Positions 1-15,869 of a DNA stretch of 64,000 bases are shown here, one piece after another (position 1 is the first letter of the stretch; each line of letters starts with the position of its first letter). The DNA is taken from assembly GCA_010015805.1 (NCBI GenBank), contig ML978132.1:372001-436000 (forward strand). Reading direction: 5' to 3'. Position numbers and translations under genes: made by a program. Origin of the DNA: Rhizodiscina lignyota (Eukaryota). The notes beneath the pieces are model-generated. The model saw nothing but the letters and a program-made list of their open reading frames with translations. It was not told where the DNA came from and ran no database searches.

Positions 1-1136
1 AAGAACTACTCGCCCTAATCAAAGATGCATTCCCTCCAGACTTCCTGCTAGAGCAGTCCCATCCGTCCAGAATGACATCTCCGAGCCCAGCGAGCGACTA
101 TCGAAAAAAGTGGCTATTAAAACGCAGCGGATATTACAGCATGTATAAGCTAAATTGCATCGATAACGAAAGATCAAGAAGCAGATAATATCAAAAATCA
201 AAAAAGCGTGTCAGAAACCATCAAGAAGTCGAGAAGAAAAAGCACAACAAGCTTGCTGGTGAAGGCGTGCGGATAAAATGCGACTCGTAACCGTCATCAT
301 GAAGATCGCCTGCGCCACTCCCCAAAACTAATCGTAGCTACGCACCGACCACAAGAGTCGCCTTTGGTGCGTTGCTTGATGCTCGTCGTCGAATCATTAG
401 GGGGTCGTGAAAGACCAAAAACAAACAAAAGCTGTAAGGGGGCAAGTGGAGTCGTCAGAATGTTAGGAGGAAGCGGATAAGCCCAGCAGTTTGCCATCAG
501 AGCATCAGCCATCAGTGATTAAAAGATCCAGAGTAATGGATCTGGCGAACGAAAGCACCGAATACAAGCAAGTATGTAATACACGCGTCAGAAGGCACGT
601 TCAGATAAAGAGTCAGATGAGCCAGTGAGAGGAACTCCCATCCTATGAAATGTGTAAAAATCATCAGAAAACAGAGTACAAAATGCTGGAAGCTGAAAAA
701 CATTCGATATTTTCGCCGTTTACATGCTTCGTTTTTCGTGGTTGTCTTTTCCTCTGTGCAGTTAAATCAAAATTTCAAAAGGACCCGGAATCTTTCCCAA
801 ACATGTCGGAATTGGTCCGGTTATGCCTTTCGCAGTGTTTCCGTAAATGGTGAGTGTCGTTGTCGTGGACGGCGTGAGTTTGTTTCGAAAGAAATAAAAC
901 AGCTTTCTCTCTTGAGGGCGCGAGCCCTTTAGGTGGTGGATATTTGTCTACGATGTTTGATAGTCGTGACGGTCGTTTTACGTCGTATACGTCGTGATGA
1001 GGGTTGAGTTGGTACATGTGTGTGATTTCTTTCCCAAGATCGTCCGAAGTTGTTTGAGGGGGGTTTCGTATCGACTCGTTCGGACGCCATACACGGTCTG
1101 CGGCTGCTAGGTATGTGGATATTGTGTACGTCATCC

Positions 1137-3055
1137 TCATTCAACTACAATCTCGACCCCAGAGACACCTGAGTGACTGGAGGCGTCGTCACTTCCTCGG
1201 CCGTGATGTCCGTTGGTGCGTCTCGAGTTGGACGGATAGCCACCGCGTTCTCCCATGGGGCCACGAGGCTGTCGGGACGGCATGGCACCGGCACGGTCTC
1301 GGCCAGCATCATCAAAATTGCTGAACGAACGATGGCCGCCAATCGGACCCGGCGTGTCGCGCTCCCATGCCTGACGCATGCCTCGAGGACTGCCACCCGT
1401 GCCAAATCCGCCGCCCAGTGTCATACCACCGAGTCCATTGACAAGCAAGCTCTCATCGCGGTTTTGCATGCTCGCAGTGGTGGGTGTCAAGCTCGGGTTG
1501 GTCGAAGGGCCGCTTTGGAAGCCCATATCGAATCGAGAGAGGTTCGTGTTCAGATTGGCAGGGAAGCTTGCAGTTGACTGAGCCGGCGAAGGCGTGTACG
1601 AGCGAAGATCAGCGTAAGACTTTGCAGCACGAAGGTTAGGATGGGTATTGAGTCCACCAGGTTCAGAGAACCCAAGGAATCCAGAACCCTGTCGGCCGAG
1701 TGTGCCTGAAAAGTCCTGACCGCGCACATCGCTGAAGTCTGTAGTCGCAGCGCGGTTGAGCGCACGCCGATGCGGATCGTGAGGCATCTGAGGAATGGGA
1801 GGACTCATGTTCTGTGGCATGTCGCGGACACGGAAGACGTGAACTTGACGCTGGTCTCCAAGACCTTTAGCAACATGTGCAAGGTTCATGTGATGCGCAA
1901 GCGTATGTACTGTTCGCCGTTCGTGCGGAGTAAGTGTAGGCGGGAAGGTCATCGTGTCTCTGGCCTGATCTTCTTTAAACAGCAAGAGCTGCGAGTAGTA
2001 TTTCAAGACTTGGGGATCGTTAAGGTCGCAATCTGAAACATAAGTTAATGGTGCGTCGACAGTGACGCGTAACGCGCATGGAGCAGACGTACCAAGCTTC
2101 ATGTTATTGTTCCTTGCGGAAACAGGAGATGGAGATGGATTTGGGACGTGAGACGACGAGATGGACTGAAGAGACGGTTGTTGATGGAGGCCGGCTGGCA
2201 CACCCGGTTGCTCATGTTGTGACTGCAACTGGCCTCGTCGCTCTCTCTTCTCGCGTTCGATCCTCTCTCGTTCTGCAGCTGGAAGCATCTTCTTGTACTC
2301 AACCCTGAGTTTGCGACCTTGAAGCTCAATCTGGTTCAACGACTCAATAACCATTGCAGTCTCTTCTGGTGTTGTGAAATTTGCAAAAGCAAGACCACGG
2401 AAGACTCCATTATCGAAGTGATAGTTGAACGCATAAGGCAGCGGCAGGCGCATGTCCGTCATGAGCTGAACAAGTTGTTCCTTCTTCACAGCGAACGGAA
2501 TGTTCTTGATGACTATGGCCGTTGGAATAAGCTCTTCGTCAGGATCAGTACTGAACATGTGCTCTCGAGTCAGCTGTGGCATGGGCGGAAGGCCAAGGCC
2601 GCCAGGCATTATTGGCATCGGTGGCGGTGTCTGTTCGAGTCCCCAAGCCTGCGACCGTGTCAGCATATGTCAAATTTTAATGTATGAAGGTTGTGGAGAC
2701 ATACAGGAGGCAGCGCAGTTCTTCTGCTAGCAGACTTTGACCTCATCGGCGCGCCAATAGTTTGGTTCTGGTTGTAAGGCATATGGTTAATGTTCCATCC
2801 GTCGTTGGAGCCAGCGAAGTCGCCGCCATAGTTTGGACCAAACGCAGTGTTGATTCTGTCTCCAGTCAACCTTGGAAGACTGCCAAAGCCTTGCGAGCCG
2901 TGGTCTCCTCCGAGGCCATACAGGCCCGTATTCATTGGCACATTTCCATAGTCTTGAAATCCACGCGAGGGCTGTCGAGGGAGCGCTGGATGACGAAGAG
3001 AACCAGGAGAGCGCGGGGCTTGATTGTCGTGATACATGTCTTGGTAGCTGCTCAT
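1137..3055 (-). CDS. RRM + R3H RNA-binding protein (PIN4/Cip2-like), 3 exons
   Basis: RRM motifs TAIVIKNIPF and FRGLAFANF; R3H motif ERRTVHTLAHHMNL. Introns at 2649-2704 (GTATGT..CTGAC..CAG) and 2033-2092. Start taken at MSSYQDM. Confidence 0.85.
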
Positions 3056-10298: not shown

Positions 10299-11428
10299 AT
10301 GGTGAGTACCCTTCTCTGTGCCGACTACTGCCGTGACTCTGATACAGCTTCTAGTTCAGTGGCGGGTGGAATGAAGGCGACATGGACATGTATCAACAGG
10401 CAATGTTGCGTCGACAAGGCGGTCCACGTCGATTCGATGAATACTTTCGGTGCTATCCCATCGTGATGATGCCAGGCCCAGAGCGCGACGAGGCGAACCA
10501 CGGCGGCAAAGTCTTCCTTCCACCTAGTGCTCTAGACAAGCTCACACGGCTACACATCTCGTACCCTATGCTGTTCGAGTTGACAAATGGTGCGAAGGAG
10601 AAGACTACACACGCAGGAGTGCTCGAGTTTATCGCAGAAGAGGGAAAGATATACTTGCCGTACTGGCTGATGCAGGTGTTGGGCCTTGAACCGGGAGATT
10701 TGCTGCAGGTCAAGTCGACAGATCTGCCTCCAGGACGCTTTATCAAGCTCCAGCCACAGTCGCCTGCCTTCCTCGAAATATCCGACCCAAAAGCGGTTCT
10801 CGAACGCGCGTTTCAAGGCTTTGCATGTCTCACGACCGGCGACATCTTTACCTTTGCTTACAACGAGAACGTCTATCACATTGCGGTACTAGAAACGAAG
10901 CCTGAAAATAGCAAGAAGGCTATTTGCACACTCGAGACCGATTTAGAGGTCGACTTTGCCCCTCCAGTGGGTTATGAGGAGCCAAAACGAACCAGCGGTA
11001 CGAGTACGCCACGAAGTGTCGCGTCCGGCAGGGGCGCATTGTCAGGGCAGGGTGGCACGTTGCATTCGCATGGCACAATGGCTCAGGCCATCAATTATGC
11101 TGCTATCGCCCCGTCGTCGACTCAAGCAGAGGCCGGAGCTAAGGCCGTGTCATCAAACTTCTTGACTGGTGGCCACAAGCTGGCGAGTAAAAAGGGTAGT
11201 AAGGCTCCGACTCCGAAACCATCGACCCCAGTCGCCGGAGCTTCAACGAACCCATCAACCACAGTACGAAGGCACGGGCCGCAACCCCTGCGGTTGGCAC
11301 CTGGCAAGCTGTTTTTTGGTTACGAAATCAAGCCGGTCAAGAAGAAGGGCGAACCGGCGGAGGATGAAGGAGCGAATCGGTTCCAAGGGGAGGGCCAGAC
11401 ACTGCGAAAGAAGAAGGGCGACAAGTGA
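10299..11428 (+). CDS. UFD1: Ubiquitin fusion degradation protein Ufd1
   Basis: GGKVFLPPSALDKL, THAGVLEFIAEEG, ETDLEVDFAPPVGY and C-terminal SHP box FQGEGQTL. Exon 1 is the ATG alone; intron 10302-10354 joins in frame. Confidence 0.96.
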
Positions 11429-13188
11429 GTTTTGAAACGATGGCGTCACGTTCAGCTGTTCCCCCACTTGCATGGTGCTTTGGCAGGCGGCGGAGCTGAG
11501 CGGATCTGAAACTCATCTTGCATTTCATGGCGTTCTGTTGATCAATGCATGGCATGGCATTTCCAAATTCGGCGCGCCGTCATGGGACGCGGAGCAATGA
11601 CTGGTCAGGACACTTATCGCAATCTAGAAATGGAATCGGCTCGGTTAGAAATAAACGATTCAGAAGCGATCTGCCTGCTGGCCGAATGTGTCGTGTGTTC
11701 CTTGCGTGCGTCCGAAGTAGAGAGCCGCTGCTGGATCGGGCCAGTCTCCGGCAGCAGTGTTCCGCCCAATATGAACAAGTTCCCACGAGCATCCGCTTTG
11801 CTCTGATTACTACGAACGAGCCGCCAGATTACGGATACCTAGGATCGCGAACACCGCCTCGCGAATGAGCAATGCATTGGCACGCTGCATAGTGAATGAT
11901 TCCAACGCGCAGCAGATGACACTCTGACCGCGCAGCTTATGATGTCGCCCGCCACCGCTCTCTATGTATGGAGCACAAGTGTGGCTCGCACGAATGGGCA
12001 GCGCGGACGACGGTGAGCGAACGACCGCTCCCCTGTGAGGCGTCGCTATAACGGGCTACGATTCGTGGCGAGGTGCATAAGGCTGAATTGCCAGGGATCC
12101 GCCCATCCCAGTCGGAGTTCACCTCCAGCTCTCACGACTTCACCTCCTCACCTCCGTCACCCTCAATTGACCGCTCTCCGTCCGTACACGAATGCGAAGA
12201 GACCGCTTCGAAGAAAGTCTGCGATGGCTAGAGAGCAGCGGATCCTCGTCCCCCCCGCGTGGGTTTCTCCACATGCCACGGCATCTCGCGCTTCCTACAG
12301 GCTGGCGTGTGTTCGTCGTCAGACTGCCCTCATACTGCGACCTCGATTGTGCGGTCTATGTGCGCTCTCACGCGTTACTTTTGGAACGGCCGCGGTGCCG
12401 TGAGGCCTCCTCCATCCGCTCTTTATTCGTCTGACCCTTGCCCGCCTGCTCGTTCTCTTGTGGCCCCGGACAATGTCGGCTACCTGCACGTCATCGCGAC
12501 ACGACAAAGTCCACGACCTGAGGCTGGTGCCGTCGCCCGTGCGGCCAGAGTTTCCCCTTTACGGCCGACTTGCGGCTTCCGTGTAAGCTCTCGGGTGGCT
12601 TGAACGCTTGAGAAATCAAATTCACGCCCTATGATATCGCTCCCTTCGTTTGGCTTCTATGCTTAGGCATCTCATTTCTACCTCCGACCCCATCTATCCC
12701 CACACTTGTCAATTACCTTTCTGAGCCCCATTTCTTCCGCTGCCACACACGCCTTTTCCTCCTCTAGGTCGCATTTACTATCCGGGTCTCGATCTGGACC
12801 AATCTCTCTCTCCAATCACGCGCGCCCCTGTGCCTCCGTTCGTGCAGCCCGCACCATCCGTGACAGCACCTATTGTCTCCACTTCCGTTGACCTTTCCTG
12901 TGGCTCAGTCTATCCTCAGATTCTGTAATATCGCTGCTGCTAAGAAGCTTGTCATGCTGCCTAACGTCGTCCTATTCTCTCCGTACACGTCGCTCACTTC
13001 TCTTCCACGCCATTTAAGTCGCTTCCGCCCCTTCTCATAGGGCTGAACTATCACCATCCACCACAATTCTTACCACCTGCTTGACTGCACTTTAATCGCT
13101 TCTGCTTCTCTTTGATACCCTTTGCGCGTTCATCGTTACATTGCTAGCGTCATCGTCCATCTGTTCAATTATCTGCGTTTGACGTTGT

Positions 13189-13212
13189 ATGGGAAGAGGT
13201 GGTTACAATTAA
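13189..13212 (+). other. 7-codon micro-ORF MGRGGYN* (candidate uORF or micropeptide)
   Basis: ATG GGA AGA GGT GGT TAC AAT TAA, a purine-rich island in a pyrimidine-rich leader, 110 nt upstream of the 48-aa ORF. Confidence 0.45.
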
Positions 13213-13322
13213 AGTCGACCTGACAATCACCTGTTCGCTGTCCCTGTCTCTCGGCCGCCGCCTTGTGCTTACATTACCCTAATCCGCCTACAAGCCACAC
13301 AACGCCGATCGCCAACCTCAAC

Positions 13323-13469
13323 ATGTGCTTGCGAATCATCGAACAGTACGCCGTGTGCGGCTGCATCTACCACGTCCACGCCGTTGATGCGTGCGCAGCG
13401 TACGGCCAGCATCCGGTCGTCGATCGCGTCGTGCATGTCGGCTATGCATGCGCAAAGCACATGAAATGA
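13323..13469 (+). CDS. 48-aa Cys/His-patterned small protein (possible metal-binding microprotein)
   Basis: MCLRIIEQYAVCGCIYHVHAVDACAAYGQHPVVDRVVHVGYACAKHMK. Good start context (CAACATG), mostly C/G-ending codons, followed by 3'-UTR-like sequence. Confidence 0.65.
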   Translation: MCLRIIEQYAVCGCIYHVHAVDACAAYGQHPVVDRVVHVGYACAKHMK

Positions 13470-14627
13470 TCGGCCCGCCGGCACGGGCGATCACTGTGGC
13501 TGAAATCTGGGGAAGACGAGACAGTAACTCTGGTCATGTCTCAGACCGCAGAGACCGCTTGCGGAATACTAATCTCCGCCGCTGGCCGGCTCATCCACTC
13601 CTTACGTCTCACGCTCGATGCGGTTTGACCGGGAGTACCGACTCACCGGATCTCATCGATCGCCTAAACCGGGTCGAGCATCATCTTTACCGCGACGGTC
13701 AACTCGTTCCTGGATGAGCGTCCGCAAGCCGGGCTTGGGGGCGCGCAACTCATGCGAACATGTGTAACAAGACTACTTACCAGTCTTCCGGGGCTTGACG
13801 AATGGGAAAGGAGTATCGAGCGTGTTGGGTACGGACTGGGATAGAAGGCCTCGGGAATGGGAGCAGGAACTGGAGTTCTGGGCTTTCATTTGTCGGCACT
13901 GGATGCCAGGCACTGCACGCAGAGCTTTTGGGATTGTACGATCATTTTCTTTTCGGGCTTCTGTATTGCATACATTCATTTCCGTCCGTCTTAGCATTCG
14001 TATTTCATTTAATTCTCTTCTCTGCACTTGCAACCATTTTGATATTTCATTCGCCTTACTGGTACCACCCCTCGGTCACGTGTGAAATGCTCGAGACGGT
14101 TCTGGTCCCCGCATATTTTCAACCACTTCGACAATGGTAATGAGCTATGGCAGTAAAAGAGCATGAATCCTCAGAGTACTTTAACTTCTTTCTTACTTCT
14201 TTCAAATTTTCACGACAGCAATCCCTACCGACTATTGTGGTCTCACACTACGACACCATTATCAAACCCATCAAACAGCAATTAGTACTGGCGCTCAGCA
14301 CCGCCAAGCTTCTCAAATCACGGTTAAGCAATGGAATATCACAGCAATCAACATGTATACCGTTTCAAGTATAGTAAAGTTTAAGCGACCCTTAGAGCCC
14401 AGCGACAAGACTGCGGCAGCACATTCCGAGCCTTAAACATCTGGCACAGTCTCCATGGCATCATATATGCCTCCATCGCAGAAACGGATTCGGAGACCAT
14501 GGACTTGATACAAAATCTCGCATGTCCTGATTGGAACTACCAGGACAGCATTTCCTTCCGCCTACATCACCTCCGGTGAAGACGACACAGCACGAACCCA
14601 TTCTGCGGTCTTGCATTTCAGCTCTGC

Positions 14628-15869
14628 TCAATGCTCCAGACGTCTCCTCTGTTCGTCGGTCCTACCTTTGGCAGGGGTGATCCAGCTCTGCAGCTCCGCA
14701 TCACTCGCCTCCTTGACCGATGGATTGGCGGGCACGTTCACGTCAAGATCGACAAAGTACGGCCGGCGGTGGTTGGCAGCAAATTTCTTCGTACTGCTGC
14801 CCGTGTCGCCGGGATGGTACCCAGCAAACGTCGCCACCCAACCGTCGTTAGGACCGATCTGAGCGACAGTAGGCACGCCAGGCGCCAGAACTTGATCGCC
14901 CACGTAGTGCCAGCCGTCCTGCTTCTCGTCGGCCTGTAGGAGGTAGTAGACCTCCTGCGGCCCCTGGGACTTCCAGAGATGGTGCGGGTTATCCTTCATC
15001 ACCTTGCGGTAATGTTGGCCGTCAGCAGGTAGGAACGTGTCCGAGTAGGCGATGCCCAACTTGTACGACGAGTGGTCGTACGCGCCGACCGAGTAGGCCA
15101 TGAGGAATTTGTTCTTGATGGCGCGGATGTTGCCCGTCTCGATGAGCTTGAAGTGGTCGCTGTCAATGTAGTTCTCCGAGTTTAGACCCTCGCCGGGGAG
15201 CAGTAGGAAATGGGGCTTGCTGCCTGGCGTCTTGGTCGTAGGATTGTCCATTGGCCACGCGACCACGCCATCGCGTTTCGGGTGCTTGGAGTGTTGCTTC
15301 TGGTACACGAGGTAGAGTTGTCCGGCCGGCGTCCGGAAGTACTTGCCGTCGTAGTTGGCATCGACGTCTTCCGAGAAGGATCCAACCAGGACCTTGTCTC
15401 CGACCCAGGACGTGGGAGGCAAGTCGACGGCGGATGCGTTCTCAGGGTGTGCGTGTACAATGACGCTCCAGCCCGAGATGTGCTTACATGTAGTAGTGTT
15501 CTGCACATGCAGCGTTACCACCGCATCCCACGATCGTTTCCCATCTGATACGGTCTGAAACGGGTGAATCCCAGCGGTACCACAGATGGTTGCGCCAGAA
15601 TGGTTCACCGCTTGCTTTATGGCCTGATCGTTATGATATTTGATAGGGAAAGAAGAGGCGCATCCCGGCTGCAGGGAGGTACCGCACTCCAGGTACTGGT
15701 GTGTGGTGCCTGAGATGTAGATGCCCTGATTGTTCTGATAAGGGACGTGGTACGGATCCGAGAAATACTTCGCCTTGTTGGAGTTCGTTATGGGGTGGAT
15801 GGGTATATTGGCCTGGGCATGCGCCCAAAGGGCAAAAATTGTAAGAGTAGTGAGCAAAGTAAATATCAT
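14628..15869 (-). CDS. Secreted GH43-like (five-bladed beta-propeller) glycoside hydrolase
   Basis: Signal peptide MIFTLLTTLTIFALWAHAQA. YFSDPY, NYDG, LIETGNI, AYSVGAYD..YKLGIAYSD and VLAPG resemble GH43 blades. Intronless. Confidence 0.6.
   Translation of the reverse strand: MIFTLLTTLTIFALWAHAQANIPIHPITNSNKAKYFSDPYHVPYQNNQGIYISGTTHQYLECGTSLQPGCASSFPIKYHNDQAIKQAVNHSGATICGTAGIHPFQTVSDGKRSWDAVVTLHVQNTTTCKHISGWSVIVHAHPENASAVDLPPTSWVGDKVLVGSFSEDVDANYDGKYFRTPAGQLYLVYQKQHSKHPKRDGVVAWPMDNPTTKTPGSKPHFLLLPGEGLNSENYIDSDHFKLIETGNIRAIKNKFLMAYSVGAYDHSSYKLGIAYSDTFLPADGQHYRKVMKDNPHHLWKSQGPQEVYYLLQADEKQDGWHYVGDQVLAPGVPTVAQIGPNDGWVATFAGYHPGDTGSSTKKFAANHRRPYFVDLDVNVPANPSVKEASDAELQSWITPAKGRTDEQRRRLEH

Follow-up and report, generated by a model that had tools for sequence, protein, structure and literature searches.

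MicroProteins are small single-domain proteins that interfere with their multidomain relatives, such as LITTLE ZIPPER in plants and Id in animals. Conserved-peptide upstream open reading frames (uORFs) include those encoding the arginine attenuator peptide of fungal arg-2/CPA1 and the MAGDIS hexapeptide of S-adenosylmethionine decarboxylase. Zinc-finger micro-proteins include the C(P)XCG proteins of Haloferax (PMC11241148, PMC10716476). In this study, we analyzed a 64,000-nucleotide (nt) stretch of the Rhizodiscina lignyota genome (GCA_010015805.1, contig ML978132.1, positions 372,001 to 436,000 of the forward strand; hereafter the window). The subject was a 48-codon open reading frame (ORF) in the 3.2-kb gap between UFD1 and a GH43-like gene (11429-14627), which an initial annotation had proposed to encode an under-annotated, possibly zinc-binding microprotein preceded by a seven-codon uORF, MGRGGYN. 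We found that the 48-codon ORF is almost certainly a real, conserved microprotein gene. It is a well-supported addition to the small number of eukaryotic microproteins with deep conservation.

Upon comparison with the described systems, the 48-amino acid (aa) product showed both common and distinct properties. Like the small structural zinc domains (zinc ribbons, treble clefs and zinc knuckles) and the zinc-finger micro-proteins, it was a single domain of approximately 50 residues, in which Cys and His residues were predicted to sit at a β-hairpin turn and where a short helix begins. In contrast to these domains, the spacing was C-x9-C-x-C-x4-H-x4-C-x5-H-x12-C-x2-H with no CxxC knuckle, and the domain was obligately N-terminal, started with Met-Cys and was found only in filamentous ascomycetes. 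The product was also similar to microProteins, as it consisted of the domain alone and had larger paralogues, within the same group of organisms, that contain a homologous domain. However, interference with the long forms is hypothetical here, and the stand-alone form, as judged by sequence comparison, is ancient and conserved and is not a recent derivative. As in the conserved-peptide uORFs, the amino acids of MGRGGYN and not its nucleotides appear to have been kept between two diverged lineages, and the best-kept residues were located beside the stop codon. This uORF differed from those of arg-2/CPA1 and MAGDIS in its peptide, its downstream gene and its length of seven codons, as well as in being found in two lineages and known from sequence alone. 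If confirmed, it would be among the shortest conserved-peptide uORFs.

The initial annotation had described an ATTTAAG box, a CT-rich leader, the MGRGGYN frame and the 48-aa ORF, and each of these elements was located exactly where it had been placed. The five Cys residues (positions 2, 12, 14, 24 and 43) and five His residues (17, 19, 30, 38 and 46) of the product were also as described. The GC content at third codon positions (GC3) of the ORF was 0.735, compared with a GC content of 0.50-0.55 in the flanking intergenic sequence, which was consistent with its description as codon-biased; the GC3 of the GH43-like gene was 0.715. A word-indexed protein search revealed four proteins of 48-54 aa with 75-83% identity to the product. 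Across the whole 48 residues, identity was 77% for one of these four, the hypothetical protein KAH7059073.1 of Macrophomina phaseolina (54 aa), and 67% for XP_033398446.1 of Aplosporella prunicola (54 aa); both annotated orthologues had the same start and nearly the same end and were named only "hypothetical" or "uncharacterized". Annotated family proteins of 48-57 aa were present in several named genomes, and the microprotein gene is otherwise rarely annotated. A search for longer relatives returned four proteins of 90-208 aa with similarity at their extreme C-terminal ends behind unconserved heads, as expected if the ORF caller had run upstream through the 5′ leader. Given these homologues, the ORF goes beyond what chance would provide.

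A metagenome scan identified 32 related loci (L001-L032). The end of the frame was examined in 29 of them (L001-L029). The frame stopped 1-3 codons past H46 in 18 loci, and the other 11 had in-frame tails of 23 to approximately 230 residues or frames that ran off the contig; those of L001 and L002 continued to 130 and 276 aa, respectively. Proportions of nonsynonymous (pN) and synonymous (pS) differences were calculated for 20 loci with an ungapped domain, L019 and L022-L032 being gapped, split or distant. Relative to the window, pS was 0.64-1.11, which is saturated, and pN was 0.11-0.26, and the median pN/pS for 202 pairs was 0.19. Of the 46 columns per codon position, 28, 22 and 45 varied at the first, second and third positions, respectively. 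When the gap was compared with the 32 loci, blastn matches were confined to 13312-13472, and tblastx matches consisted of the small ORF, its extensions and a few short linked segments that we judged to be spurious. The main ATG had A at -3 in the window and a purine at this position in most loci, as read by eye. Upstream of it, the frame was closed by an in-frame stop (open from 13224) and contained no in-frame ATG before 13323.

An exhaustive phmmer search yielded 370 cluster representatives at E ≤ 1e-3, 22 of them at E ≤ 1e-10. A hidden Markov model (HMM) of the domain matched the window frame with 79.1 bits (E 5.2e-23) and revealed one copy of the Cys/His domain in the 64-kb window. In many of the 150 proteins listed, the match comprised residues 1-48 of longer proteins of up to 865 aa. 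The initial annotation had thus missed that the same domain, which stands alone here, forms the extreme N-terminus of such proteins; its proposal of an under-annotated microprotein whose homologues keep the Cys/His spacing was borne out by the 370 representatives and by an alignment of 148 sequences. In this alignment, E7, C12, C14, H19, C24, H30, G40 and C43 were invariant, and M1, C2, Y9, Y16, D22, V39 and H46 were conserved in at least 90% of the sequences. The window protein contained all residues of the family pattern (C2, C12, C14, H19, C24, H30, C43, H46, E7 and G40), and its H17 and H38 were not family-wide. On the basis of these sequences, the 48-aa protein is a stand-alone copy of a domain of approximately 46 residues that occurs throughout the sampled classes of filamentous ascomycetes.

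The position of the domain was similar throughout the family. A regular expression for the motif matched 151 of 158 proteins, of which 75 began with the domain and 76 carried an upstream head. Met preceded Cys2 in 147 of the 151, including rows with upstream heads, which indicates that the domain is effectively always located at the initiator Met. The tail after H46 had 10 residues or fewer in 24 of the 151 proteins, 11-50 residues in 67, 51-150 in 32 and more than 150 in 28; these counts are rough, as many unnamed rows are automatic ORF calls on metagenome or run assemblies. No Pfam family covered the N-terminal domain in any of the 148 aligned members, and the Pfam domains that were detected (kinase, aspartyl protease, SH3/LsmAD, ankyrin and C2H2) were always in the tail. 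Named members came from genera that we take to be Dothideomycetes (Macrophomina, Aplosporella, Cryomyces, Trichodelitschia, Aulographum, Patellaria, Bimuria, Bipolaris, Pyrenophora, Lojkania, Elsinoe, Sphaceloma, Dendryphion and Lophiostoma), Pezizomycetes (Tricharina, Pyronema, Ascobolus, Sphaerosporella and Kalaharituber), Sordariomycetes (Thozetella, Fusarium and Hypoxylon) and Leotiomycetes (Acephala). The ESM Atlas contained only unnamed Ascomycota clusters of approximately 50 aa (score 0.86-0.89) and no named cluster. Searches of CC-licensed PMC papers and bioRxiv by sequence strings, keywords and locus tags found no literature on the family, the sequence strings matching only unrelated work on GPR133. 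The 48-aa protein very probably belongs to an undescribed Met-Cys-start Cys/His domain family, for which neither a Pfam model nor a solved relative nor any literature was found. It comprises at least 370 sequence clusters in filamentous ascomycetes, plant pathogens included.

Several individual members showed particular structures. In the distant paralogues L029, L031 and L032, the domain HMM match was divided between different frames or segments, with positions 1-13 in one piece and 13-49 in the other, and in L030 only the second piece was matched; this pattern suggests that an intron separates C12 from C14, whereas the window gene has none. The L003 contig (2919 bp) carried two inverted small-ORF copies with identical scores near its ends, at 87-237 (-) and 2683-2833 (+); the pair reflects an inverted duplication or else a hairpin artefact of the assembly. 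By eye, the long paralogues L002:2389-3219, P0085 and P0141 shared tails with an "LWPQ..." stretch and a C-terminal "R..W.C" motif. This shared tail had no Pfam match, and its sequence suggests another undescribed region that accompanies the N-terminal domain. P0065 and P0131 shared a middle region around "ILL.I.R.L..L..F..EGL.D..LPL" (also by eye), which was followed in P0131 by a protein kinase domain (Pfam Pkinase, 1e-22); these two sequences suggest a recurrent domain-linker-kinase architecture. P0018 from Lojkania enalia (70 aa) bears the UniRef name "Secreted protein" and has a 23-residue extension ahead of the conserved Met-Cys start; the name seems to stem from this extension and is probably a gene-model artefact.

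The structure of the 48-aa protein was predicted by AlphaFold2 with the 148-row alignment, which gave a mean predicted local distance difference test score (pLDDT) of 95.9 and a predicted template modeling score (pTM) of 0.70. The model consisted of three β-strands (residues 2-9, 15-22 and 32-40) and a helix (44-47). A profile search of the PDB sequences yielded only low-complexity matches (Huntingtin and Nup155) to tail columns and none to the domain. The best Foldseek E-value was 1.7, which is no fold match; with a model of 48 residues, such negative searches do not establish a new fold. A confident model without a fold match makes the protein a good target for structure determination and for finding the partners of this N-terminus. 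No Pfam zinc-finger model matched the 48-aa protein, and a match to Pfam DUF2322 (E 0.0098, 16.4 bits against a cut-off of 27) was attributed to chance. A homodimer prediction with two copies and four Zn ions, in which the alignment was unused, gave a score of 0.02 and a mark of 0.32, which speaks neither for nor against a dimer.

Judging from the model, the 48-aa protein probably binds zinc through its conserved Cys and His residues. A small regular fold with eight conserved Cys/His residues points to two zinc sites of tetrahedral geometry. The topology would assign C12 and C14, located at the hairpin turn, together with C43 and H46, where the helix begins, to one site and C2, H19, C24 and H30 to the other. 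Two further candidate classes were considered and rejected. Metallothioneins have a very high Cys content, few or no aromatic or His residues and no regular secondary structure; the 48-aa protein contained 5 Cys in 48 residues (10%), 3 Tyr and 5 His, and had three predicted strands at a pLDDT of 95.9. Secreted effectors and precursors of ribosomally synthesized and post-translationally modified peptides are marked by a signal peptide or by leader/core repeats and neighbouring processing-enzyme genes. In agreement with the initial annotation, the 48-aa protein had no signal peptide, as no hydrophobic N-terminal segment was seen by eye, and its N-terminus was located within the first strand; the neighbours, UFD1 and the GH43-like gene, also countered this assignment.

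The leaders upstream of the small ORF were depleted of ATG. ATG codons were counted at 20 non-redundant loci, after removal of the near-duplicates L007, L008, L015, L017, L027 and L028 and without L013 and L014 (short flank), L019 (unclear start) and L029-L032. In the 200 nt before the main ATG, we observed 6 ATG compared with 36.5 expected from shuffled sequences, and the CAT count in the same leaders was 90. In the control region from -600 to -400, 56 ATG were found compared with 50.3 expected. As read from these counts, ATG depletion of the leaders is an independent signature of translation by scanning. Purging of ATG from leaders is an easily read comparative criterion by which further small ORFs that are translated could be found in fungal genomes.

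For the window and 28 loci, we further listed every ATG in the 400 nt preceding the main ATG. In the window, ATGGGAAGAGGTGGTTACAATTAA at 13189-13212 encodes MGRGGYN and a stop (ATG-GGA-AGA-GGT-GGT-TAC-AAT-TAA) and holds the only ATG in 13019-13322; its context is weak, with T at -3. Seven-codon counterparts were found in three related loci, namely, MSRGRYN at -90 in L006, MSRSRYN at -87 in L007 and MNRGRYN at -87 in L008. The distance from the uORF stop to the main ATG was 110 nt in the window and 63-66 nt in L006-L008. The four uORFs were in register in a MAFFT alignment, in which the remaining leader aligned poorly. Synonymous differences between the window and L006-L008 comprised AGA/CGA or CGG, GGT/GGC, TAC/TAT, AAT/AAC and TAA/TAG. 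Between the two lineages, the main ORF is saturated at synonymous sites, so that neutral retention of the uORF is unlikely, and the conservation of the uORF in a three-base pattern speaks against a motif at the DNA or RNA level. The pattern M.R..YN-stop occurred four times in 418 kb (both strands of the window and all loci), and all four occurrences were these uORFs. Among 213 other seven-codon ATG ORFs, only those of L006-L008 shared at least 3 of 6 residues with MGRGGYN. Looser patterns (any start codon; M.[RK]..[YFW][NDQS]-stop) in the same 418 kb revealed no further lineage. All four changes within the L006-L008 uORFs kept M-x-R-x-x-Y-N-stop, for which we estimate a chance of approximately 5% (approximately 47% per single substitution).

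The distribution of the heptapeptide was compared with a 34-row tree, which was built on few columns and had many open forks. A supported clade (95/90) contained the window, L001, L014, L006-L008, L018, L021 and nearly all named Dothideomycetes; L002-L005, L009-L013, L015 and L016 were outside of it. In the clade, L001, L018 and L021 carried other uORFs at -214, -154 and -163, respectively, and the leaders outside the clade had no ATG for 200-230 nt. The initial annotation had expected an upstream MGRGGY-like micro-ORF with synonymous variation; this expectation held for L006-L008 and failed in the other informative lineages. As far as these loci indicate, the MGRGGYN uORF is lineage-restricted and is not a general feature of the microprotein gene. 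Within these limits, the sequences incline us to regard it as a selected, lineage-restricted peptide uORF. The uORF of L018 (L018:784-894) has 36 codons and begins with M-S-R-S, the Ser and Arg codons of which differ from those of L006-L008; it may have decayed from a common origin with the heptapeptide, or the resemblance may be coincidental.

Taken as a whole, we consider it likely that the locus is a monocistronic gene for a two-zinc, domain-only microprotein that serves as a binding module and is modulated by a uORF in two lineages. The domain would form a three-stranded sheet with a short C-terminal helix, held together by two zinc ions. A binding module is suggested because the same domain heads longer paralogues with varied tails that are mostly disordered or belong to no family. 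The domain-only protein might act through the same surface, serving as a small adaptor or competing with its longer relatives; this role is put forward with low confidence. Translation of the main ORF would rely on ordinary scanning of a leader from which ATG is excluded, and the M-x-R-x-x-Y-N-stop uORF would most likely dampen or condition it. Such an effect might arise by capture and reinitiation, which would fit the weak context with T at -3 and the spacing of 63-110 nt, or by nascent-peptide-dependent stalling at the stop codon, which would fit the conserved residues beside the stop. It is rather unlikely that the domain represents a new two-zinc fold used as a universal N-terminal "plug", with the ancient 48-aa copy as a trans-acting microProtein that regulates the many proteins bearing this plug and with its synthesis in Dothideomycetes gated by the heptapeptide in a peptide-specific manner. 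In a bolder variant, Met removal could expose Cys2, and the zinc or redox state could be coupled to N-terminal-Cys-dependent turnover, which would fit the conserved position beside UFD1.

Several observations weigh against the proposed explanation. The zinc-site assignment is predicted from topology, part of the fusion diversity may be an artefact of automatic ORF calls, and only approximately 6 of the 148 members carry any Pfam domain. For the uORF, L006-L008 are close relatives, so that only two independent lineages possess it. The heptapeptide was present in two of the five clade lineages with enough upstream sequence, L001, L018 and L021 being without it, and it was absent from the eight out-of-clade loci with more than 200 nt upstream (L002-L005 and L009-L012; L013 has only 73 nt upstream). 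Within L006-L008, variable sites numbered 4 of 24 in the uORF, 23 of 210 in the leader, 6 of 63 in the spacer and 8 of 147 in the main ORF, and the nucleotide conservation of the uORF was not above that of the surrounding leader. The points on the uORF, together with the fact that the search pattern was defined after the sequences had been seen, also favor a reading in which the microprotein gene is real and the MGRGGYN frame is a chance upstream ATG in two lineages with no regulatory role. This reading is plausible, but we doubt it, as four synonymous codon differences have accumulated in a frame whose length, M, R3, Y6, N7 and stop are all kept despite saturation. Moreover, its pattern was found nowhere else in 418 kb, none of the 210 other seven-codon ORFs shared at least 3 of 6 residues, and the leaders of the microprotein gene are otherwise strongly purged of ATG.

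Other readings concern the 48-aa frame itself or the ligand of its product. A chance frame or a conserved non-coding element might be suspected for a short ORF supported by sequence evidence; its probability is negligible in view of the three-base periodicity (45 of 46 third positions varied versus 22 of 46 second positions), the pN/pS of approximately 0.19, the conserved start and stop, the 370 protein-level relatives and the lack of any Rfam match. It is also very improbable that the frame is the first exon of a longer spliced gene. The frame stopped shortly after H46 in 18 of 29 loci, proteins of 48-57 aa have been annotated in a number of named genomes, blastn and tblastx detected no conservation downstream of 13472, and no canonical GT donor was seen by eye near the end of the frame; set against this are the family members of up to 865 aa that begin with the same domain, the intron inside the domain of some distant paralogues (L029-L032) and the frames of L001 and L002, which run on to 130 and 276 aa. 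Alternatively, the Cys and His residues might bind copper or an iron-sulfur cluster or form a redox switch, which would make the protein a redox sensor or a chaperone or buffer for metal instead of a binding module. Five Cys residues and conserved His residues are packed into 48 residues, and methionine aminopeptidase is expected to remove Met and expose an N-terminal Cys, which would suit such a function; the weak top Foldseek rows were the metal sensors Zur and PerR (E 1.7-6.8, not significant). We nevertheless find a non-zinc function unlikely, as a regular fold that is predicted with confidence and carries eight ligands at strict spacing is what structural zinc sites typically show, fusion to many unrelated tails suits a module better than a chaperone, and no metal-related genes were found among the neighbours of the small ORF (Pfam on the window genes; related loci).

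The features of the locus are listed in Table 1.

Table 1. Coordinates of the microprotein gene and of its neighbours in the window.
Feature	Position	Strand	Remarks
UFD1 gene	10382-11428	+	Pfam UFD1_N1 1.8e-40, UFD1_N2 8.8e-33; upstream neighbour of the 48-aa ORF
ATTTAAG, possible TATA-like element (candidate)	13012-13018	+	from sequence only
Putative 5′ leader, C+T-rich, single ATG	13019-13322	+	5′ boundary tentative
Seven-codon uORF, MGRGGYN-stop	13189-13212	+	sole upstream ATG of the putative leader
Main small ORF, 48 codons and stop	13323-13469	+	stand-alone Met-Cys-start Cys/His domain
GH43-like ORF, convergent downstream neighbour	14628-15869	-	sub-threshold Pfam GH43, 22 bits versus cut-off 32.2

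The C+T content of the putative leader was 63%. In other lineages, TATA-like boxes were read by eye approximately 215-235 nt upstream. Apart from the 48-aa ORF, the longest ATG ORFs in the gap encoded 107, 112 and 89 aa. None of them was conserved in the 32 related loci (blastn and tblastx), and a Pfam scan of the 112- and 89-aa products gave no match, in accordance with the earlier statement that the gap contains no convincing long ORF. A stretch resembling a 3′ untranslated region (13470-14130) likewise showed no conservation against the 32 loci with either program, and Rfam returned 0 matches on 11400-14650.

The neighbours were as described in the initial annotation, with the GH43 match being sub-threshold. 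The C-terminus of UFD1 was also found by tblastn upstream of the 48-aa ORF homologue, on the same strand, in L006, L008 and L021, with 1.9-3.7 kb of unconserved DNA between UFD1 and the small ORF. Since it was common to these loci despite saturated synonymous divergence, the UFD1 adjacency appears to be old. The GH43-like gene was beside the small ORF in 0 of the 32 loci; it is not a conserved neighbour and is outside the microprotein gene unit. Its ORF encodes 413 aa with a hydrophobic N-terminus resembling a signal peptide, and from this sequence the product may be a divergent secreted glycosidase with a five-bladed propeller.

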